Origin: an uncultured Alphaproteobacteria bacterium
GTDB taxonomy: Bacteria > Pseudomonadota > Alphaproteobacteria > Rs-D84
Assembly (NCBI GenBank): GCA_934276735.1
Contig: CAKQTG010000001.1
Location: 224,455 to 288,454, forward strand
Direction: 5' to 3'
Length of the DNA stretch: 64,000 nt
Shown here: one piece after another, positions 8,024 through 19,979 of the stretch
Position numbering within the stretch: the stretch's first letter is position 1
How the letters are laid out: the number at the start of each line of letters is the position of its first letter
Position numbers and translations under genes: made by a program
The notes under the pieces: generated by a model
Databases searched by the model: none
Seen by the model: the letters and a program-made list of their open reading frames with translations, nothing else
What the model was told of the DNA's origin: nothing

Positions 8024-8052
8024 CAAAAAACGGGGCGTTTGCCCCGTTTTTA
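8024..8052. terminator. bidirectional Rho-independent terminator (tsaE / ftsA-rpe convergent)
   Basis: aaaaaacggggc-gttt-gccccgttttt. The stop codon of the minus-strand gene lies in the T-run. Confidence 0.7.
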
Positions 8053-9819
8053 TCGCTTTAATAAACTCTGAACTGCCAGGGGAAAATCCGGACTGCGTGC
8101 CAAATATGAGCCGCTGACCAATAAATCTGCGCCGGCGTCCCAGCACATTTGTGCTGTTTTATCATTTATTCCACCATCTACTGAAATTATAAATTTCAGT
8201 CCGTATTTTTTACGTGTTGCGGCCAAAACAGAAATCTTTTTCAGGCAATCTGTTTGGAATTCTTGGCCGGCGGCACCTGGGGCGACGGTCATAACCATAA
8301 CTTCGTCCACATCACGCAGAATTGGCTTTAATATCGCAGGTGATGATTCTGGGTTCAGGGCAACGCCTGCACGACGCCCTGCCGCGTGAACGCTGGCAAT
8401 AGCCGCACGCAGACCAGACGTATTTGTTGACATGATAACCGTGTCGGCACCGGCGGCAACACTGTCGGTGGCCCAGACGGACGGACTCTCGGTCATCAGG
8501 TGTACGTGCAGGTGTGCGTCAGTGTGGGCACGTATCATCTTTAATTCTGGAATACCACCCGCCACGCGGTCAACATAGAATCCGTCCATAATATCAACGT
8601 GTATCATTGATATTCCGCCCGCACGAAACATTGAATATGTTGATGCACGACGCATATTAAAACACAGTGTGCTGGGCATAATTGGAATAAAACGACGGCG
8701 GTGTGCTGGGCGTTTGCGGAACAGTTTTGTTATAAAAGCAATGCGACGCTGTATACGATCACGACGCGCCAGGTACGCGCCACGATGAGTCGCCTCGGCA
8801 TTCCAGACGTGCGCACATGCCGCCCGAACAATTGCGTCATTGGAAATATATTCGGTCGGAATTGAAAATGTGTTTTCAATGAACTCGGTCGCCCCCTCGG
8901 CCAGTGCGCCACCACCGGTCAATATAATCTTGGTTGGGCGATATTTGATAATCGCGTCATGAGCCGCAGTCGTTATTTCGGCGGTAATATCAACGCATGC
9001 TGGCATAAATATATCGATGACATCGCCACGTGAAAATTCGTATGCGGTATCGGCGGGGGTAAATCTATCCATTTCTTTGGGGATAAAACTGGCTACTGCA
9101 CGCTTTATCCGTTCAGCGTCATCAAAACCTATGTGCAATTTTGCAGAAATGTCGTTTGTTATTTTTGTTCCACCCAGTGGAATTTTATAGTGCCAGACTG
9201 GGCCACGGTCGGTCCAAATGGACGCTGATGAAAATTCCCCGCCCAGGTCAATGAACATGACTGTTTGTTTCTTTTGTCGCAATGTTGTATTCAGTAAAAA
9301 TTGCGGGTCATAAAATGCACAGGGTGTGATATGGGCGCGACGCAGAAAACCCAATACTTCGTTCAATCGCGATTTCGTATAAAATATTGCGCCAAACGCC
9401 GATATCAGCTGTCGGTCGGTATAGCCAATTGGACTAATCATATTGCGTGCGGTTGGCGTATCGTATCGCAGTGGCACGATATGCATTGGAAAGTATCCGT
9501 CAGGCGCGTTTATCTGGGCAATCTGGGCACGGACATCGGCAGTTGTGATTTTGTGTTCGCCGCCCCAAGCGGTGCTTTTTGCAGTCATTTCAAAAATAGA
9601 CGTGCCAAAATTCCCCGTGATATATGCGGTGTCAAAACTGGTTCCGATTTGATGTTCCAGATCGTCAATTACATACCGCAGTGCAAACACGGTATCAAAA
9701 CAATCCGATGTTGAAATTGCAGATTTTACAATCTTGGCCCCACGGACACGGTGTGCCATTCCGCGCACACCGGTCGATCCAATGTCCAGACATAAAAAAG
9801 CCGAATCAAACAGGTTCAT
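8050..9819 (-). CDS. ftsA: FtsA (actin-like cell-division ATPase) fused in frame to ribulose-phosphate 3-epimerase (Rpe); single 589-aa ORF
   Basis: N-terminal ~370 aa carry the FtsA motifs LCLDIGSTGVRG, FIDLGGEFSSASIW and ILTGGGALAEG, plus a C-terminal amphipathic segment IAFITKLFRKRPAHRRRF. Translation continues without a stop into a complete Rpe barrel (HVDIMDGFYV ... ISVDGGINDKT ... LLVSGSYL). Confidence 0.7.
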   Translation of the reverse strand: MNLFDSAFLCLDIGSTGVRGMAHRVRGAKIVKSAISTSDCFDTVFALRYVIDDLEHQIGTSFDTAYITGNFGTSIFEMTAKSTAWGGEHKITTADVRAQIAQINAPDGYFPMHIVPLRYDTPTARNMISPIGYTDRQLISAFGAIFYTKSRLNEVLGFLRRAHITPCAFYDPQFLLNTTLRQKKQTVMFIDLGGEFSSASIWTDRGPVWHYKIPLGGTKITNDISAKLHIGFDDAERIKRAVASFIPKEMDRFTPADTAYEFSRGDVIDIFMPACVDITAEITTAAHDAIIKYRPTKIILTGGGALAEGATEFIENTFSIPTEYISNDAIVRAACAHVWNAEATHRGAYLARRDRIQRRIAFITKLFRKRPAHRRRFIPIMPSTLCFNMRRASTYSMFRAGGISMIHVDIMDGFYVDRVAGGIPELKMIRAHTDAHLHVHLMTESPSVWATDSVAAGADTVIMSTNTSGLRAAIASVHAAGRRAGVALNPESSPAILKPILRDVDEVMVMTVAPGAAGQEFQTDCLKKISVLAATRKKYGLKFIISVDGGINDKTAQMCWDAGADLLVSGSYLARSPDFPLAVQSLLKR

Positions 9820-10564: not shown

Positions 10565-10945
10565 TCAACTGGCGCGTAGCAAATAACCGCGTCTAAACAT
10601 ACACCTGCGGTATGCGCCGACAGTTTTAGATGTTGTATTTCGTGGCACCGACATCAGGGCCCGCTGACCCGCGTCGGTATATTCATTGGATTGAAATGTC
10701 ACCCACAGACCGTCCCAGTCCGGCATTTGGCCACTCTGGTTCGGGGCCAACAGTTTGGCAATACGGCTGCGTGGCATATATGACGGCTTGGTTATCCCCA
10801 GGCATGCCTTGTGGTCACGAACAAATTGTTCCATGGTGACGGATTCATTTTCCCAATTCAAAACCGTGGCATCGTCAATGTTGCCACGATTTGGGGACGC
10901 ACATGCCGCCAGTGCCATTATTAATGCCAGATATTTTATTCTCAT
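10565..10945 (-). CDS. small lipoprotein, hypothetical (126 aa)
   Basis: Signal peptide with lipobox LAAC-A (MRIKYLALIMALAACASP). Confidence 0.55.
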   Translation of the reverse strand: MRIKYLALIMALAACASPNRGNIDDATVLNWENESVTMEQFVRDHKACLGITKPSYMPRSRIAKLLAPNQSGQMPDWDGLWVTFQSNEYTDAGQRALMSVPRNTTSKTVGAYRRCMFRRGYLLRAS

Positions 10946-11021
10946 GTTTTATATTATAATTTATTTGCCTTTGGGGGGCAATAGTTTTTATAATAGGCAT
11001 AACAAGGAGAAAGAGAATATC

Positions 11022-11348
11022 ATGGCAATAACAGTTGCTAATTTTATAAAGATGGCAAACTTCTATAACCAGATGGCAAAAATGATGTCAGCAATCTGTG
11101 TAGAAAAGGGTGGCATAGCGATGGAAAATTATGTCGGGCGTTTCTTTGCGGCCGATACGTTGGAATTCGTTGCCGAATACGGACGTCGCCTGGTGGCGCA
11201 GCGGCCCAGTGACCTGACACCGGAAATTGTTGGGGTGATTGAACGCTTTGAAGAAAGTTACAAACGGGTCAAGGATTTAACGACACCAACACAGAAACCA
11301 ATTTATGAAATGACATTGGCAGAATTTGAAAAAATTATGAACATATAA
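11022..11348 (+). CDS. hypothetical protein (108 aa)
   Basis: ATG preceded by aaggagaaagag RBS; the upstream part of ORF 10755..11348 is antisense to the lipoprotein gene. Confidence 0.45.
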   Translation: MAITVANFIKMANFYNQMAKMMSAICVEKGGIAMENYVGRFFAADTLEFVAEYGRRLVAQRPSDLTPEIVGVIERFEESYKRVKDLTTPTQKPIYEMTLAEFEKIMNI

Positions 11349-11352
11349 AAAC

Positions 11353-12723
11353 GTGGCAAAGGAGATGTGGCGGATGAAAACAATGAAAAAAATATTTGGT
11401 GGGGCCATGGCAATAACGCTGGTGGTGGCGTTGCTGGCGGCGTGCACCCAGAAAAATGCCGCGACCGATATGCCCCAGTATGATACGGTGACGGTTGTAG
11501 ATAACCTGGTCATTGATGAAAATTCGGTGCCGATTTTCCCGAAAAAGGCGGCACTGACCACAGATACAGCACGTCGCTTTTCCCTGGATTTGCCAAAGCG
11601 GTGCGAGGTAAATTGGGATAACCAGGCGGTTGTTTCCGTTGTTCCCGAAGAAAAAATTGAAATTATTCGTCTGAATACCGGTGACGCGTTGCCAGAATTA
11701 CAGGTGTCGGACTATGAATTCAAGAAATTGACGGTAAAACGTGCATTGGATAAATTGCTGGACGGAACAGATATATCGGTCATAGAAGACGAAGAAATGA
11801 TTGAAACTGTATCTGGCTCAATCAATTCTGGTAAATTGTCTGATGCGGTTGAACTGATGGCCAAGATGGGGCGTGCGTATTATTCCTATGATGCCGACGC
11901 CGGCGAAATTCATTTGACGCATCGTGCAAAATGGTTGGTAAAAATGCCACACGACCAATCTATTATTATGGCGTTGATTGACGCAATGCGTGGCGCAGAT
12001 GTGCGAAATCTGTTGGTGGACTGGAACGACAAGACGTTGGTGTTTGAAGGAAATTACCAGACCGAGCGCGAGGTTTCCAGAATCATTGCTGATGTCGCGT
12101 CCAAGAAATATATGCTGGCGTGGGACATTGATGTGTATCGCGTGTACCCACGCACAGACAATCCGATTGTTTGGATGAATATGTTGCCGGCATTTGGGGA
12201 CAAAAATATTAAAATGTCTATCCCAGGCGTGGTGGGGCGTGCGCTGGTTGTGGGACCGGAAATTAATACCAAGACGTTGCAAGAATTCTTGTCGCAACAG
12301 GCAAACGTAGTTTTGATATCCCAGGGTCAGTTTGTAATTCCAAACGGTTGGCAATCGCGTTTTGATATCGGGCAATGCAGCAAGGAAGAACGCCTGGAAA
12401 CAGATTTGATTATTGGTGCAACGGGCAAGTATGGCGATTTTGGCGGCCGTGATAAAATTGATGCGAAAATCGTTTTGCGAACCAGTAATGGCGAATTGTC
12501 ATCGTTTAACATTCCGTCAAGCATTGGTGATAACTATGTGATTATCGGTATTCCGACGCATTCGTTCGTGACAACACCTGAAACGCTGATATCACCGTTT
12601 GCAGAATTAGTTGTGTTTATGTCACCGCGTGTGATTTCCATTGTTGATGCACACGCTGCACCAAGTGGCGCGTCTGCGCCACTGGTTGGTGACGCATTAC
12701 GTAAATTTTTACGCCAAGAATAA
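11353..12723 (+). CDS. secretin-like outer-membrane lipoprotein (lipobox LLAAC; start may be 11386)
   Basis: Lipoprotein signal MKKIFGGAMAITLVVALLAACTQ. The C-terminal third resembles the secretin domain (VVLISQGQFVIPNGWQSRFDIG ... DNYVIIGIP ... AELVVFMSPRVI, cf. secretin terminus ELLIFITPRIV) but lacks the canonical GGL/PxLGxIPxLGxLF segment. Confidence 0.5.
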   Translation: MAKEMWRMKTMKKIFGGAMAITLVVALLAACTQKNAATDMPQYDTVTVVDNLVIDENSVPIFPKKAALTTDTARRFSLDLPKRCEVNWDNQAVVSVVPEEKIEIIRLNTGDALPELQVSDYEFKKLTVKRALDKLLDGTDISVIEDEEMIETVSGSINSGKLSDAVELMAKMGRAYYSYDADAGEIHLTHRAKWLVKMPHDQSIIMALIDAMRGADVRNLLVDWNDKTLVFEGNYQTEREVSRIIADVASKKYMLAWDIDVYRVYPRTDNPIVWMNMLPAFGDKNIKMSIPGVVGRALVVGPEINTKTLQEFLSQQANVVLISQGQFVIPNGWQSRFDIGQCSKEERLETDLIIGATGKYGDFGGRDKIDAKIVLRTSNGELSSFNIPSSIGDNYVIIGIPTHSFVTTPETLISPFAELVVFMSPRVISIVDAHAAPSGASAPLVGDALRKFLRQE

Positions 12724-12742: not shown

Positions 12743-13999
12743 ATGTTATTTTCAAGACTAGAAAGAAAAATCGCATTCAGATACCTGGCCGCAAAAAAGC
12801 GCGGATTCGGTTCTGTTATTTCATGGGTGTCGCTGATTGGCATTACGCTGGGGGTTGCAACACTGATTGTTGTTATGTCAGTTATGGGCGGATTTCACGA
12901 AACGTTGTTATCGCGTATTGTTGGTATGAACGGTCACGTTGTTGTTTATCATCAGGACGGCGCAATCAGTGATTTTGATTATCTGATTGATAAAATGAAA
13001 CAGAACAAGGTTGTGTCAGCAAATGCAACTGGTATCGTTCCTATTGCCGAGGGGCAGGTTATGGCCACTGCCGGTGGTAATAATACAGGGGCGATGGTGC
13101 GCGGAATTCGTATGACAGACCTGACTGCCAAGACCCAGGCAGGAACAAAAATTTATGGCAAGAAATTATCCGAAATCCGTGATGGTGAATTGATTGCGGG
13201 GGCGTCACTGGCGCGCAGTCTGCGTATCGGTATGGGGGACAAGGTATCGTTGGTATCTGCCAATGGGGCGACGCCAACACCATTTGGTTCAATGCCACGC
13301 ATAATGTCATATCCGGTTATGTCATCGTTCTTTATGGGTATGTATGAATATGATTCTGGATATATATTTATGCCACTGGAAACCGCCCAGAAATATTTAA
13401 ACATCGGTAATGCCGTAACGCATATTGATTTGTTCCTGCGCAATCCCGAAGATACGACCGCCGTGCGCGATGCGTTGGTGCGTCTGTTGCCAGATGGTTT
13501 TGTCGTGCGTGATTGGCGCGAATTAAATCGTGGCTTTGTCGGTGCGTTACAGGTTGAATCAAATGTGATGTTCTTGATTTTAATGCTGATTGTCATTGTG
13601 GCAGCATTTAATATTGTGTCGTCGTTGGTAATGCTGGTCAAGGACAAGAACAAGGATATAGCCGTCCTGCGCACGTTTGGGGTATCGCGTAAATCGATGA
13701 TGAAAATATTTATTTTGTCTGGCACCAGTATCGGTGTTATTGGCGCGTTCTTTGGCACGGTGTTGGGTGTTATTGTCGCGATTTATATCGAGCCTATACG
13801 CCAGTTTTTCCAGTGGGCAACGGGGCGCGACCTGTTTCCGGCAGAATTGTATTATCTGTCTGAACTGCCATCTAAATTGGTGCCGGGGACTGTGATTGGG
13901 ATTGCGGTGCTGGCGATTGCATTGGCGTTTCTGGCGACAATTTATCCGGCATGGAAGGCTGCATCAACCGACCCGGTCGATGTGCTGCGAAATGAATAA
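12743..13999 (+). CDS. lolC: lipoprotein-releasing ABC transporter permease LolC/LolE (single-permease type)
   Basis: MLFSRLERKIAFRYLAAKKRGFGSVISWVSLIGITLGVATLIVVMSVMGGF is the LolC/E N-terminus; FtsX-like C-terminal TM bundle. Confidence 0.85.
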   Translation: MLFSRLERKIAFRYLAAKKRGFGSVISWVSLIGITLGVATLIVVMSVMGGFHETLLSRIVGMNGHVVVYHQDGAISDFDYLIDKMKQNKVVSANATGIVPIAEGQVMATAGGNNTGAMVRGIRMTDLTAKTQAGTKIYGKKLSEIRDGELIAGASLARSLRIGMGDKVSLVSANGATPTPFGSMPRIMSYPVMSSFFMGMYEYDSGYIFMPLETAQKYLNIGNAVTHIDLFLRNPEDTTAVRDALVRLLPDGFVVRDWRELNRGFVGALQVESNVMFLILMLIVIVAAFNIVSSLVMLVKDKNKDIAVLRTFGVSRKSMMKIFILSGTSIGVIGAFFGTVLGVIVAIYIEPIRQFFQWATGRDLFPAELYYLSELPSKLVPGTVIGIAVLAIALAFLATIYPAWKAASTDPVDVLRNE

Positions 14000-14018: not shown

Positions 14019-14729
14019 ATGGCAAATATTTTAAATTCTTTATCGCGTGTGAAAAAAGGTGACGTTGTCCTGTCTGTGCGCGATATTAAAAAGACATTTA
14101 TCGAAGGTGGACAGCCCTTGCACATTTTGCGCGGTGGCGGTTTTGATTTGCACCGTGGTGAAATTATCGCATTGGTTGGACAATCGGGATCTGGAAAATC
14201 TACGCTGTTACAGTGCGTCGGATTGTTGGATAAACCCACCAGTGGCAGCATTTTGCTGGACGGGGCGGCAACGAACCGCATGGACGAAGACACTCGCACA
14301 ATGATGCGTCGTAACAAAATCGGATTTGTGTACCAGCGGCATAATCTGTTATCTGATTTTACGGCATTAGAAAATGTTGTTTTACCAATGTTGGCGGCGG
14401 GCACAGACGAAATCACGGCAAACGGCCGCGCGATGAAATTATTACAATTGGCCAGTGTTGCACATCGTGCATCGCACCTGCCCGGGGAAATGTCCGGGGG
14501 CGAGCAGCAGCGCACCGCGGTTGCGCGTGCGTTGGCCAATAATCCGGAAATTTTACTGGCCGACGAACCGACTGGCAGTTTGGATCCAGCACATGCAACT
14601 GCGGTGTTTGATTTGCTGTTGGAATTGGTGCGCAAGAATAAAATGGCAATGTTATTTGTGACACACGATATGAATCTGGCCGCACGTGCCGACCGAACAA
14701 TCACAATTCGTGATGGAATTGTAAAGTAA
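14019..14729 (+). CDS. lolD: lipoprotein-releasing ABC transporter ATP-binding protein LolD (alternative overlapping start at 13992)
   Basis: Walker A GQSGSGKST, ABC signature LSGGEQQRTAVARAL, Walker B LLADEPTGSLD. Confidence 0.85.
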   Translation: MANILNSLSRVKKGDVVLSVRDIKKTFIEGGQPLHILRGGGFDLHRGEIIALVGQSGSGKSTLLQCVGLLDKPTSGSILLDGAATNRMDEDTRTMMRRNKIGFVYQRHNLLSDFTALENVVLPMLAAGTDEITANGRAMKLLQLASVAHRASHLPGEMSGGEQQRTAVARALANNPEILLADEPTGSLDPAHATAVFDLLLELVRKNKMAMLFVTHDMNLAARADRTITIRDGIVK

Positions 14730-14758: not shown

Positions 14759-15610
14759 ATGAAAAAAATATCAACCACAAAATATGAAACCACCGTCCCC
14801 ACATCGCGCAAGGTTTGGGGTGTGCTGGCACTGGCCGGGTTATTTACATGCGGTGTATTTATCGGAACAACATTGAATAATAATCGCACGCCTGATACAG
14901 AATTTTCCGATGACGCATGTCGCGAATTGGCGGATAAAATTGCCGGCGAAACAGACGAGGCCACATTAGAACAACTGGGTGAAACATATTCCGAACATTG
15001 CACTGTGGACGCATCAGATCAGAATACAACCAGCCTGTCACGGTGCCAGTGGTTCGAGAAAATACTTTCTGCGCGCTTGTGTCCAGACGATAATCTGATG
15101 AATGATAGCTATTGCCTTAAACAAAATATTGATATTTATAAAAAATTGGTGACATACGGTTGCCCAGAAAATCGTGATAAATATGTTGAAATGGCGAGTA
15201 ATCAAGACACCTTATTGAATGCTGTGTTTGGTGAATACAACTTTGTAACCAAGGAAGTTTCAACATGTGAACGTATTGAACAATTGTTGAAGGGAAGATT
15301 GAACCCAAAAGATGTTGATAACTTTAATTATCATTTGGAAAATGCGGAAATCTATGCACGTCTGGCAGAACGTGGATGCCCAGAAAACGCCGATAAATAT
15401 CGTGCATTGGCCGCCAGTGAAATAGAAATCACAACGGCATTACAACCGGTTGAAGCTATGTCTGATATTGACGTGGCAGAGGTTGTTGATGTCTATAAAA
15501 AGGTGAAAATGCAGGCCGCCGCGCAACAGGTAATTGATACCCTGCAAAAGGTTTCTGAACCAACCATAGATTTTATTTTGAAACTGGAAAAAATTGTAAA
15601 TGAAGAATAG
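14759..15610 (+). CDS. membrane-anchored periplasmic repeat protein, hypothetical (283 aa)
   Basis: aggaga RBS; N-terminal signal-anchor WGVLALAGLFTCGVFIGTTL; internal repeats YKKLVTYGCPENRDKYVEMA and YARLAERGCPENADKYRALA. Confidence 0.55.
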   Translation: MKKISTTKYETTVPTSRKVWGVLALAGLFTCGVFIGTTLNNNRTPDTEFSDDACRELADKIAGETDEATLEQLGETYSEHCTVDASDQNTTSLSRCQWFEKILSARLCPDDNLMNDSYCLKQNIDIYKKLVTYGCPENRDKYVEMASNQDTLLNAVFGEYNFVTKEVSTCERIEQLLKGRLNPKDVDNFNYHLENAEIYARLAERGCPENADKYRALAASEIEITTALQPVEAMSDIDVAEVVDVYKKVKMQAAAQQVIDTLQKVSEPTIDFILKLEKIVNEE

Positions 15611-15620
15611 GGGGCGCGTT

Positions 15621-16265
15621 ATGAAACGTTTGTTTGTTGCGATTTCGGCACTGGTGTGTGTTGGGTGGACGGCGGCGCATGCGGCTGATGTTGCACCGCG
15701 TATGTCGTGCGCAGATATTAAAACCCAGATGGATACATTGTTCGCGCGTGATGATTTAACCGATGATGAATCAAAACAATTGACCGATATGCGCACAAAG
15801 TATCGTCGTGATTGTGTTAAACGTGCGGCGGGTGGTCGTGGTGCGCAAACTATTGCGGCCGCACGCGCACCGGTTGCAACCGATGATGCGAAAAATTCGG
15901 ACGCCGCCGCGGCCACACCTGGCGCACCATGTGATACCCCGGACGAACATGGTTGCTGTCCGGGTGAAACGTATACCGATATGGGTGACCAGGGATTTAA
16001 TTGTTGCCCGTCTGATGGCGGCATGTGCTTTACGCCAATGGTGCTGAAATCGGTTGAAAATACCGAAGTTCAAGACGATGCACCTGTCAAGACAGACGAA
16101 GAAATCGCGGCGGAAATAAATGCGAATATTGCGGCAGGTCTGTGCGCCGATGGCACCAAGCCGAATAAGTATGGTTGTTGTGCCGATGAATTGTTCCGCG
16201 ATATGGGCGGAACGTTCGCGTGCTGTCCAAAAACGGGCGGTGACTGTTTCCCGCCGATGAATTAA
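15621..16265 (+). CDS. secreted cysteine-rich tandem-repeat protein, hypothetical
   Basis: Signal peptide MKRLFVAISALVCVGWTAAHA. Two copies of the module GCCPGETYTDMGDQGFNCCPSDGGMCFTPM / GCCADELFRDMGGTFACCPKTGGDCFPPM. Confidence 0.55.
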   Translation: MKRLFVAISALVCVGWTAAHAADVAPRMSCADIKTQMDTLFARDDLTDDESKQLTDMRTKYRRDCVKRAAGGRGAQTIAAARAPVATDDAKNSDAAAATPGAPCDTPDEHGCCPGETYTDMGDQGFNCCPSDGGMCFTPMVLKSVENTEVQDDAPVKTDEEIAAEINANIAAGLCADGTKPNKYGCCADELFRDMGGTFACCPKTGGDCFPPMN

Positions 16266-17967: not shown

Positions 17968-18042
17968 GCGGGCATAGTACAAAGGCTAGTATGCAAGCCT
18001 TCCAAGCTTGAAATGCGGGTTCGATTCCCGCTGCCCGCACCA
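17968..18042 (+). tRNA. tRNA-Gly (anticodon TCC), CCA encoded
   Basis: Manual cloverleaf: acceptor gcgggca/tgcccgc, D-stem gtac/gtat, anticodon stem caagc/gcttg with loop cttCCAa (anticodon UCC), T-arm gcggg-ttcgatt-cccgc, discriminator A, CCA. Confidence 0.85.
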
Positions 18043-18049
18043 AGAGATT

Positions 18050-18136
18050 GGGCGTGCGCCGGAGTTGGAGAGCCGGGGCAGACTGTAAATCTGTTGGCTT
18101 AAGCCTGAGCTGGTTCGAATCCAGCCACTCCCACCA
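18050..18136 (+). tRNA. tRNA-Tyr (anticodon GTA), class II long variable arm, CCA encoded
   Basis: Manual fold: D-stem ccgg/ccgg, anticodon stem gcaga/tctgt with loop ctGTAaa, variable arm tggcttaagcctga, T-arm gctgg-ttcgaat-ccagc. Acceptor gggcgtg/cactccc has one C4:U69 mismatch. Confidence 0.78.
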
Positions 18137-18359: not shown

Positions 18360-18394
18360 AATAAAAACACCCGCGTGCCGGGTGGTTTTATTTT
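18360..18394. terminator. bidirectional terminator at the 3' end of lpoA-like gene
   Basis: A-run, hairpin cacccg-cgtgc-cgggtg, T-run ttttatttt; contains the lpoA stop codon. Confidence 0.6.
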
Positions 18395-19979
18395 ACTCTT
18401 CGATTTCCACGCTGTCGATATAGGTGCGGTTAACGCTTTCCAGGCTGGACGGTTGAAAGTCTGGATTTTCAATTGGGTCACTGTCATCTTCGGGCAGGAC
18501 TGTTATATTTTCAACCGGTGGCGTCACGGTTGTGTTGCGTGTCATGTTCGCACCAAACGTTTTGGATTTATATTTCCCGTTCAGGCGTTCTGGAATACGG
18601 ATATAGTTCATCGGATTTATACCGTCTGTTTCCAGTGCCATTTCAGATGCCGGGATAATGTGGCGTTGTTCAATGTTATAAATTGGCGTCATAAAGTTTT
18701 GTGGTGCCGCCCGCACGGTGCGTGGGGTGCCACTGGCGTCCAGTTCCAATATGCGCAATGCGCGTTGGCTGTCCCCGTTTGGACGCAGGCGGACCAGGCC
18801 ACTGGCCCCGATATAACCGCTGGGGTCCAACAGGTATGCGGCGTCTGATTTATCAGAATAAATCATGCCTATTGCCATATTTGCAGCATCATATCCAAAT
18901 GCCGCCAGATGTGACGGTGCAGTACCAGATATCTGGGAATAAAGGTTAGCAAAATTTTCATTTATTTCAGGCAAGGCTGCATACTTTGCCCCAGACATTG
19001 TAAAATCAGATGTTATGTTTGAACCGTCCCACATTGTGGTGCCATAAAAACGTGCGTCACGCGCCGATACGTTGTAATAGCGCAAGAAAGATGCTAATGC
19101 CATTGAATCATCGCCTGTGCCCAGGAATAAAACCGCATCATACGGCGCCGCGCCCAGTGTGTCTGATTTTGATATTTTATCCAGTTGCATTGACAGTGAT
19201 GATTTTTCAATCGCGGTCAGGCGTTCCTTGGTCAAAATGTCGGACAATATTTCGCGTGCGCGTGTGTTTGCCGCGGTGCGCGCCGCGTTCATTGATGCGC
19301 GCATTGATGCGTTCTTGATTGATTCAGAATTGCCCGGTGTGTAATAGATTATGCCGACCAATTTTATGCCGTAAATTGACGCCGCATTTTTCGCTGTACC
19401 CGCCATTAGACGTCCGGATTCTGTGTCTGGTGCCAGAATTACAAATTTAGTCACGTTGTCAGATGACATTTCTTTGGTAATAGCCTCGACACTGTTGGTG
19501 GGCATCAGGTTCATTGTCATAATTCCGTCGCCAACTGCTGTTGCATCAGATGTGAACGACAGGGCAGGTGTGTCGACGGATTTTATCGCGTTTAACATAC
19601 GTGCGTCGCCTGCAAAAACGGGGCCAATTATAACATCTGGTTTTTCAGATGCGGCGTTTTCAAATGCGTCGCTGCGTGCGGTATCAAAAAATGTTACTGA
19701 CAGATTCTGTGGTGCACTTTGCAGAACGGCCATTTCAACCGATGTGCGGATTGTTTTGCCGGCACTTGCGTTTTGCCCACTGAGTGGTAATAACACTGCC
19801 ACGCGATGCATGTTGCCGTCGGTCGCGGAAAAATTCCCGTATTGCATTGATGACGGCGTACCGGCAACGTCATTGCCGTATTCAGCCCCCCAGTTGTTGG
19901 AACTGGTAATGCCACCGCCACCACACCCGGCCAGAATTGTTGCAATTGCGCAAAAACTAAAAAATCTGTTCATAAACAT
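18393..19979 (-). CDS. lpoA: LpoA-like lipoprotein (penicillin-binding protein activator; periplasmic-binding-protein type I fold)
   Basis: Lipobox ILAGC. Long type-I PBP-like domain; divergent arrangement with rsmI as for E. coli lpoA(yraM)/rsmI(yraL). Confidence 0.6.
   Translation of the reverse strand: MFMNRFFSFCAIATILAGCGGGGITSSNNWGAEYGNDVAGTPSSMQYGNFSATDGNMHRVAVLLPLSGQNASAGKTIRTSVEMAVLQSAPQNLSVTFFDTARSDAFENAASEKPDVIIGPVFAGDARMLNAIKSVDTPALSFTSDATAVGDGIMTMNLMPTNSVEAITKEMSSDNVTKFVILAPDTESGRLMAGTAKNAASIYGIKLVGIIYYTPGNSESIKNASMRASMNAARTAANTRAREILSDILTKERLTAIEKSSLSMQLDKISKSDTLGAAPYDAVLFLGTGDDSMALASFLRYYNVSARDARFYGTTMWDGSNITSDFTMSGAKYAALPEINENFANLYSQISGTAPSHLAAFGYDAANMAIGMIYSDKSDAAYLLDPSGYIGASGLVRLRPNGDSQRALRILELDASGTPRTVRAAPQNFMTPIYNIEQRHIIPASEMALETDGINPMNYIRIPERLNGKYKSKTFGANMTRNTTVTPPVENITVLPEDDSDPIENPDFQPSSLESVNRTYIDSVEIEE

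Follow-up and report, generated by a model that had tools for sequence, protein, structure and literature searches.

The 64,000-nucleotide stretch analysed here (the window), from an uncultured alphaproteobacterium of the GTDB order Rs-D84, carries the gene of a 214-aa cysteine-rich protein, Cys214, which ends in a six-cysteine module (Cys6) that is a previously undescribed, lineage-restricted domain family. The same module closes several other proteins, including the type IV secretion system (T4SS) core component VirB10. Cys214 is a genuine conserved gene under purifying selection, and its product is most likely a Sec-exported, periplasmic envelope protein of Candidatus Enterousia/Rs-D84. As to function, we lean, tentatively and with rather less than even confidence, towards Cys6 being a disulfide-stabilised periplasmic docking module, with Cys214 as a soluble carrier paired with TM283, the product of the preceding gene.

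Candidatus Enterousia belongs to the GTDB order Rs-D84 in the Alphaproteobacteria, its genomes are mostly smaller than 1 Mb, and it was described as purely fermentative, with no TCA cycle and no aerobic or anaerobic respiratory chains reported; peptidoglycan synthesis genes were reported for Rs-D84, and the authors proposed a symbiont or parasite life style in which metabolites are taken from other cells (PMC12306168).

The gene and its putative ribosome-binding site were delimited as follows:

15609..15614, + strand: Shine-Dalgarno-like AGGGGG, 6 nt 5′ of the ATG, overlapping the stop codon of the upstream gene (from the sequence)
15621..16265, + strand: Cys214 coding sequence, 214 aa, stop codon included (ORF list, homologues, third-codon-position bias)

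The start at 15621 was preferred over an alternative ATG at 15600 because Cys214 homologues begin at the same M1-K2 in the alignment. A search of 5.8 billion proteins retrieved 227 relatives, with identities falling from 95% to about 30%, all of them unnamed or 'hypothetical' and lacking a Pfam domain. Moreover, a scan of one genome per species revealed Cys214 in 143 genomes, from which 80 loci were kept; the host genomes listed are nearly all titled uncultured Alphaproteobacteria, 'Rickettsiales' or Candidatus Enterousia MAGs, and come from human, ruminant, mouse and other guts. Substitutions in the + frame accumulate at the third codon position, with 5/8/46 changes at positions 1/2/3 against one related locus (L007) and 13/12/39 against another (L001), and the comparison with L007 yielded 40 synonymous versus 11 non-synonymous codons.

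Long antisense ORFs, pointed out in an earlier reading made from the sequence only, do overlap Cys214 (194 and 175 aa) and remain open in relatives. These ORFs, together with a local GC content of 0.54 against about 0.45 in the neighbouring genes, are the grounds for suspecting that Cys214 is a spurious product of local GC richness and that one of the long antisense ORFs is the true gene. The probability of this is practically nil, as the homologues retain the invariant cysteines and the signal peptide down to about 30% identity, the codon changes are mostly synonymous, and unrelated proteins end in the same module, in-frame. What settled the coding strand was the signal peptide and the invariant cysteines, together with the recurrence of the module, in-frame, in other proteins. 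The lack of conservation that the sequence-only reading had named as the mark of a spurious ORF is clearly contrary to what the homologues and the third-position bias revealed, and the spurious-ORF candidate was rejected as already refuted by the conservation data.

The anatomy of Cys214 was established from alignments of 30 and of 104 family members, in which conservation is the mean frequency of the commonest residue, and from AlphaFold2 (AF2) models:

15621..15683, + strand: Sec/SPase I signal peptide, residues 1-21, cleavage after AHA (read from the sequence; homologue alignment)
15699..15839, + strand: helical hairpin with invariant R27, C30, R62, C65 and R73 (both alignments; AF2)
15840..15929, + strand: variable low-complexity linker, residues 74-103 (pLDDT <50; conservation 0.30)
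15930..16040, + strand: Cys6 module 1, residues 104-140, an optional copy (70 of 104 relatives; AF2 beta-hairpin 116-130)
16086..16142, + strand: conserved helix, residues 156-174, leading to module 2 (AF2 helix 159-171; conservation 0.60)
16143..16259, + strand: Cys6 module 2, residues 175-213, invariant, ending 1 residue before the C-terminus

By eye, the signal peptide reads MKR, then LFVAISALVCVGWTAA, then AHA, with AD following the cleavage site. Its n, h and c regions are equivalent in the 30 aligned homologues, which keep an AxA end (AFA followed by DD in most), and the Cys13 that it contains is preceded by Val and is not conserved, so no lipobox is present. Cys214 is thus read as a Sec/SPase I secretory protein, and the earlier assignment of a Sec signal peptide agrees with this layout. 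After its removal, the order is hairpin, disordered linker, module 1, second linker, helix and module 2, with 14 cysteines in the mature chain, an even count made up of 2 in the hairpin and 6 in each module; about half of the chain is disordered in the AF2 model. The hairpin, an invariant two-cysteine element (C30, C65) that had escaped the sequence-only reading, was modelled as antiparallel helices at 30-41 and 48-66 with a pLDDT of about 87, in which C30 and C65 lie at the open end, on opposite ends of the two helices, and are presumed to staple it by one disulfide.

Module 1 reads CDTPDEHGCCPGETYTDMGDQGFNCCPSDGGMCFTPM (residues 104-140) and module 2 reads CADGTKPNKYGCCADELFRDMGGTFACCPKTGGDCFPPM (residues 175-213), each with the cysteine order C..CC..CC..C, and the two are 53% identical across 34 aa (E=5e-11). 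The initial description of two six-cysteine modules with CC doublets therefore stands as regards number and cysteines, but their length is about 38 aa instead of 30, and the proposed GCCP pattern does not apply to module 2, which reads GCCA. Among the 104 family members, two modules were found in 70, one in 33 and three in a single protein, and in some one-module members a second Cys-flanked helical segment replaces module 1. Module 2 is present in every member and ends 1-5 residues short of the stop; in Cys214 the C-terminus is ...GGDCFPPMN, with no hydrophobic stretch.

The cysteines of module 2 (C175, C186, C187, C201, C202 and C209) are invariant, all six are intact in 305 of 309 distinct modules of relatives, and the module profile positions G12, E17, D21, G23 and P40 are at least 90% conserved in the same set. 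Conservation of non-cysteine residues reaches 0.79 in module 2, by far the most conserved region, versus 0.51 in the hairpin and 0.24-0.30 in the linkers, which indicates a probable conserved binding surface. Both modules were predicted as a beta-hairpin between the CC doublets, with pLDDT 82-86 in the full-length AF2 model and 83.7 when an isolated module was modelled alone. Paired cysteine losses that would reveal disulfide connectivity were sought in the 309 modules and none was found, the cysteines being invariant. A division into 'internal' and 'terminal' subtypes matching protein families was also rejected: it is clean inside the Cys214 family, but VirB10 and other carriers mix the subtypes, and no model of heterotypic pairing between modules was therefore built.

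Neither Pfam (at E<=1) nor NCBIfam gave a match for Cys214, which agrees with its earlier placement outside any housekeeping family, and a Pfam scan of the 104 members yielded, among the matches listed, nothing beyond weak and scattered coiled-coil hits, never in more than 5 members. When PDB sequences were searched with profiles, nothing relevant emerged at E<=10, and no fold matches were found for the Cys6 module. The domain is thus new with respect to Pfam, NCBIfam, PDB sequences and known folds, and it is confined to widespread uncultured gut Alphaproteobacteria with genomes below 1 Mb, from humans, ruminants, birds and horses. In a six-frame translation of the 64-kb window, the module profile matched the Cys214 ORF only (E=1e-38), and neither further module copies nor VirB10 or other carrier types were found there.

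Outside the window, a 42-position module profile run against 1.84 billion representative proteins retrieved 256 module-bearing proteins at E<=1e-3, of which 103 reached E<=1e-10. The last module lies no more than 8 residues from the C-terminus in 295 of 299 carriers, and exactly one residue before it in 193. One type of carrier comprises 500-850-aa proteins with the Pfam TrbI (VirB10) domain (P0186, P0201, P0209, P0210 and P0213), whose genes are found in VirB8-CagX(VirB9)-VirB10 operons beside housekeeping genes. Another comprises bitopic proteins of ~800 aa, in which a single TM helix separates a cytoplasmic coiled-coil region from a long periplasmic linker rich in Pro, Ala and Glu; their genes neighbour gcrA and a prepilin peptidase gene. 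Carriers of a third type, of 81-85 aa, consist of one transmembrane helix plus the module, and their genes lie directly 3′ of an LpoA/LppC-like lipoprotein gene. Cys214 itself gave no match to TrbI (PF03743) and shares only the terminal Cys6 module with the TrbI-positive proteins. One MAG locus-tag prefix, K2L95, is shared by a Cys214 homologue (K2L95_00300) and a VirB10 that bears the module (K2L95_04965), and one organism therefore uses the module on several proteins. That so small a genome keeps about four proteins with this invariant module at their end, a T4SS core component among them, suggests an important envelope function, which could bear on envelope building or cell contact in these presumably partner-dependent bacteria. 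No papers were found on a cysteine-rich VirB10 extension or on Rs-D84 with type IV secretion.

Some details of these loci were recorded in passing. Chromosomal VirB8-VirB9(CagX)-VirB10 operons were located in two related genomes (L088 348-5103 and L090 7717-12436), adjoining secE-nusG/ribosomal protein genes and yidC-lspA; their VirB10 carries, after the TrbI domain, a Cys-containing extension of ~170 aa and then the Cys6 module, and its gene is followed by two unknown genes of ~115 aa. In L091 (4374-6246), the gene for an 81-aa TM and Cys6 protein starts 22 nt past the LpoA/LppC-like gene, and the LppC orthologue of the window (18393-19979, − strand) is followed by no gene of the 81-aa type.

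Cys214 is the last gene of a block built around lolE-lolD, whose members and downstream neighbours are:

10565-10945, − strand: 126-aa lipoprotein gene; lineage-specific, no family match
11022-11348, + strand: 108-aa protein gene, opening the block; lineage-specific, no family match
11353-12723, + strand: 456-aa lipoprotein gene; lineage-specific, no family match
12743..13999, + strand: lolC/E-type lipoprotein-release permease (TIGR02212, 417 bits, cutoff 362; FtsX and MacB_PCD domains)
14019..14729, + strand: lolD-like ABC ATPase (best NCBIfam model TIGR02211 LolD, 247 bits, below the cutoff of 308)
14759..15610, + strand: TM283, with an N-terminal membrane anchor, repeated Cys-flanked helical units and a conserved C-terminal helical segment
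16283-17902, + strand: 539-aa lipoprotein, lipobox LLLSAC
17968-18042: tRNA-Gly, just 3′ of the 539-aa lipoprotein gene
18050-18136: tRNA-Tyr, likewise just 3′ of that gene

The order, from the minus-strand 126-aa lipoprotein gene through the 108-aa protein, the 456-aa lipoprotein, lolC/E, lolD and TM283 to Cys214, is fixed in 84-86 related loci; Cys214 is single-copy and syntenic behind lolE-lolD in all of those examined, always the last of the block, and the genes beyond it vary. In small, slowly rearranging genomes, a fixed gene order can partly reflect ancestry instead of function. The 126-aa, 108-aa and 456-aa genes are retained directly before lolE, in fixed order and with identities of 60-97%, in 81-83 of 86 loci. 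Across the same loci, identity is 30-50% for TM283 and Cys214, 80-87% for lolE and lolD, and 75-85% for the two lipoproteins, which are therefore nearly as conserved as lolE and lolD and may, as this suggests, have essential envelope functions; the 456-aa one gave only a faint secretin-N (STN) match (E=0.11). The best promoter-like site was placed at 10965-10994, 5′ of the 108-aa gene, and from there to the Cys214 stop no real-looking terminator was found on the + strand: the hairpins listed there are weak, have T-poor tails and fall inside coding sequence, two of them in Cys214 itself.

Within this block, Cys214 is coupled to TM283 in an operon-like arrangement: TM283 is directly 5′ of Cys214 in 84 of 84 loci, and in 82 the gap lies between −11 and +18 nt. 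The upstream neighbour had been described as a membrane-anchored repeat protein, and the anchor and repeats of TM283 correspond to that description; Pfam gave nothing convincing for it. It carries one to three helical units 'TCExIE...GCxEN' (TCExIE...GCPEN in the window), each bracketed by cysteines, and 8 putative periplasmic cysteines, and its relatives span 178-374 aa with one to three repeats. In two loci (L073 and L074), an extra insert of ~100 aa follows the anchor. Homology of the Cys214 hairpin with the Cys-flanked repeats of TM283 was considered and found unsupported (hhalign probability 16%).

The position of the pair raises the alternative that Cys214 and TM283 assist LolDE as lipoprotein-trafficking accessories, for example as a lineage-specific receiver or regulator of release. 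It is in keeping with the constant last place of Cys214 in the lol block across 84-86 loci with variable downstream genes, with a lolE score above the TIGR02212 cutoff, and with the absence of an internal terminator. However, the model contains no hydrophobic cavity and no LolA/LolB-like barrel, about half of it being disordered; the module is also carried by proteins, T4SS ones among them, whose genes lie far from lol; and Cys214 and TM283 evolve far faster than lolE and lolD. A role in lipoprotein release is suggested by operon position only, does not suit the predicted structure and appears rather improbable. The specific candidate of a LolA/LolB analogue was ruled out, as the predicted structure has neither barrel nor cavity.

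Beyond Cys214, the 539-aa lipoprotein had been called 'TbpB-like', a label that found no support, since Pfam, NCBIfam and PDB sequences returned only noise at E<=1. Of 86 related loci, a single one (L011, at 80% identity) has the gene, whose GC content in the window is 0.35-0.39 against about 0.45-0.54 around it. It looks like an accessory insertion, a presumably recently acquired surface lipoprotein outside the Cys214 unit.

The sequence-only reading had also likened the modules to a toxin or adhesin-type knot. Such a protein would be a secreted disulfide-knot toxin, an antimicrobial peptide precursor or a host/partner adhesin, released or displayed on the surface against neighbouring cells, and Cys214 does have a small size, abundant cysteines, a signal peptide, no housekeeping family and an internal module copy number of 1 to 3, in a lineage proposed to live as symbiont or parasite on other cells. 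Against this, every related genome examined keeps Cys214 as a core gene, in one copy and in conserved order, Sec is the only export system linked to it, and the identical module is found on inner-membrane-anchored proteins, including an 81-aa one unable to leave the membrane. Moreover, the loop residues of module 2 are under strong purifying selection; a toxin would be expected to show hypervariable loops, the reverse of such conserved non-cysteine residues, and the toxin reading was disfavoured for this reason. Core synteny, the non-cysteine conservation of 0.79 in module 2 and the sharing with VirB10 leave the toxin or adhesin assignment unsupported and make it highly unlikely, and Cys214 is better classed with conserved envelope proteins than with toxins.

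The state of the cysteines is the other point on which readings diverge. Disulfides were favoured because of the CC-hairpin-CC geometry, the helix-end cysteine pairs in Cys214 and TM283, and the lack of CxxC motifs; the even number of cysteines in the mature chain and their positions are likewise in keeping with oxidation in pairs. The alternative is a periplasmic metal-binding protein, in which the cysteines of the modules and nearby Asp, Glu and Met would serve as ligands of a metal or thiolate cluster (Zn, Cu(I) or Fe) instead of forming disulfides, and would buffer or deliver metal in the envelope. The six invariant cysteines per module and the conserved E, D and M are compatible with it, as is a strictly fermentative lineage in which the classical oxidative folding pathway may be absent. 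The gut habitat of Rs-D84 is taken as anoxic, and without a respiratory chain the usual DsbA/DsbB-quinone route to periplasmic disulfides may be missing; among the ORFs of the 64-kb window, the extent of this search, no DsbA-like exported CxxC protein was found, and a thioredoxin-reductase-like ORF there contains CATC. Nevertheless, the vicinal CC pairs beside a beta-hairpin face opposite ways, as is typical of disulfide ladders, CxxC or CxxH metal motifs are absent, and both the hairpin pair of Cys214 and the 8 periplasmic cysteines predicted for TM283 are placed as helix-end staples. In addition, the conserved Gly, Pro and aromatic residues suit a packed knot, no metal-binding family was matched, and a metal store makes little sense on VirB10 and other structural proteins. 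Metal or thiolate binding is kept in consideration, as an unlikely alternative, because respiratory chains are reported lacking.

For the docking module, which we continue to prefer, the mechanism would be as follows. Once the signal peptide is removed, mature Cys214 would consist of three folded elements on disordered linkers: a hairpin closed by one disulfide (C30-C65), and ~38-aa modules in which a beta-hairpin would be pinned by three disulfides formed from the C, CC, CC, C cysteines. The C-terminal module would be the functional core and would dock onto a conserved endogenous envelope partner. In VirB10, the ~800-aa bitopic proteins and the 81-aa proteins, all anchored in the inner membrane, it is fused through a long flexible linker to the C-terminal tip, and Cys214 would be the soluble, two-module version, with TM283 supplying the membrane anchor, such that TM283 and Cys214 would form a split 'membrane anchor - linker - module' design. 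A conserved endogenous interaction was preferred over a toxin or variable adhesin because of the strict C-terminal position of the module, beyond flexible linkers on proteins anchored at their N-termini, the very high non-cysteine conservation and the core, single-copy, syntenic nature of Cys214. Two main points count against the docking model: in the 81-aa mini-proteins a mere ~15 residues separate the module from the membrane, which fits poorly with an outer-membrane partner, and without respiratory chains the oxidant for 14 cysteines stays unexplained.

Comparison with known systems yielded partial resemblances. Granulin/epithelin (PF00396) is also a small domain with prominent CCP motifs, and its beta-hairpins are pinned by vicinal-CC disulfides, as that of the Cys6 module would be. 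The granulin consensus has 12 cysteines, with four CC doublets about 5-8 residues apart; in contrast, the bacterial Cys6 module has 6 cysteines, its two doublets being spaced by 13-14 residues, and granulin was matched in Pfam neither by Cys214 at E<=1 nor among the matches listed for the 104 relatives. Compared with the fungal hydrophobin pattern of eight cysteines (C-CC-C-C-CC-C), the module lacks the two middle cysteines, and no Pfam match was obtained. The bitopic and VirB10 carriers share with TonB/TolA an anchor, a long Pro/Ala/Glu-rich linker and a distal domain, a likeness of design only, and VirB10 is known to resemble the TonB/TolA architecture, which TM283 and Cys214 together could represent in split form. 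However, the C-terminal domains of TonB/TolA are not cysteine-rich and have no sequence or fold similarity to the Cys6 module, and no ExbBD/TolQR-like genes are linked to Cys214.

Similarly, the chlamydial OmcA/OmcB are structural cysteine-rich envelope proteins that act via disulfides, and Cys214 is also exported and cysteine-rich, in a host-associated Gram-negative bacterium with a reduced genome. Its cysteine pattern is different, peptidoglycan synthesis genes are reported for Rs-D84, and the chlamydial Cys-rich families of Pfam gave no match to Cys214 or among the matches listed for its relatives. The extreme C-terminal position on otherwise unrelated exported proteins also recalls C-terminal sorting domains (T9SS CTD, PEP-CTERM, GlyGly-CTERM, LPXTG). 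Unlike these, the Cys6 module has neither a hydrophobic helix with a basic tail nor a beta-sandwich CTD of ~80 aa, its carriers are already membrane-anchored at their N-termini, and no NCBIfam or Pfam sorting-signal model (PEP-CTERM, GlyGly-CTERM, LPXTG, T9SS CTD/Por_Secre_tail) matched Cys214.

A more speculative extension, to which we assign a low probability, is that Cys6 serves as a lineage-wide periplasmic 'address tag' through which its otherwise unrelated carriers would plug into one shared receptor, or into one another, perhaps by exchanging disulfides, and would so build a modular or covalently linked envelope scaffold. If true, such a scaffold would exist in a bacterium without the respiratory chain on which classical DsbB-dependent oxidation relies, and the question is raised of how a fermentative organism of this kind oxidises the 14 cysteines of one periplasmic protein. 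What these findings offer at present is a new domain family with clear limits and a hypothesis that can be tested; the modular reuse of the domain, VirB10 included, is unusual.

Variation and unusual genes were also recorded within and near the block. In several loci (L004 5965-6690, and also L017, L018, L020, L021, L027 and others), an extra gene of ~241 aa, with no Pfam match, lies between lolE and lolD, and the distance from lolE start to lolD start is about 1.9 kb versus about 1.27 kb. Finally, positions 8050-9819 of the window (− strand) encode a 589-aa protein in which an FtsA-like N-terminal part is joined to a ribulose-phosphate 3-epimerase domain. Its orthologues in L001, L004 and L005 carry precomputed Pfam FtsA and Ribul_P_3_epim assignments, and this unusual fusion is conserved across the lineage and adjoins ftsQ.
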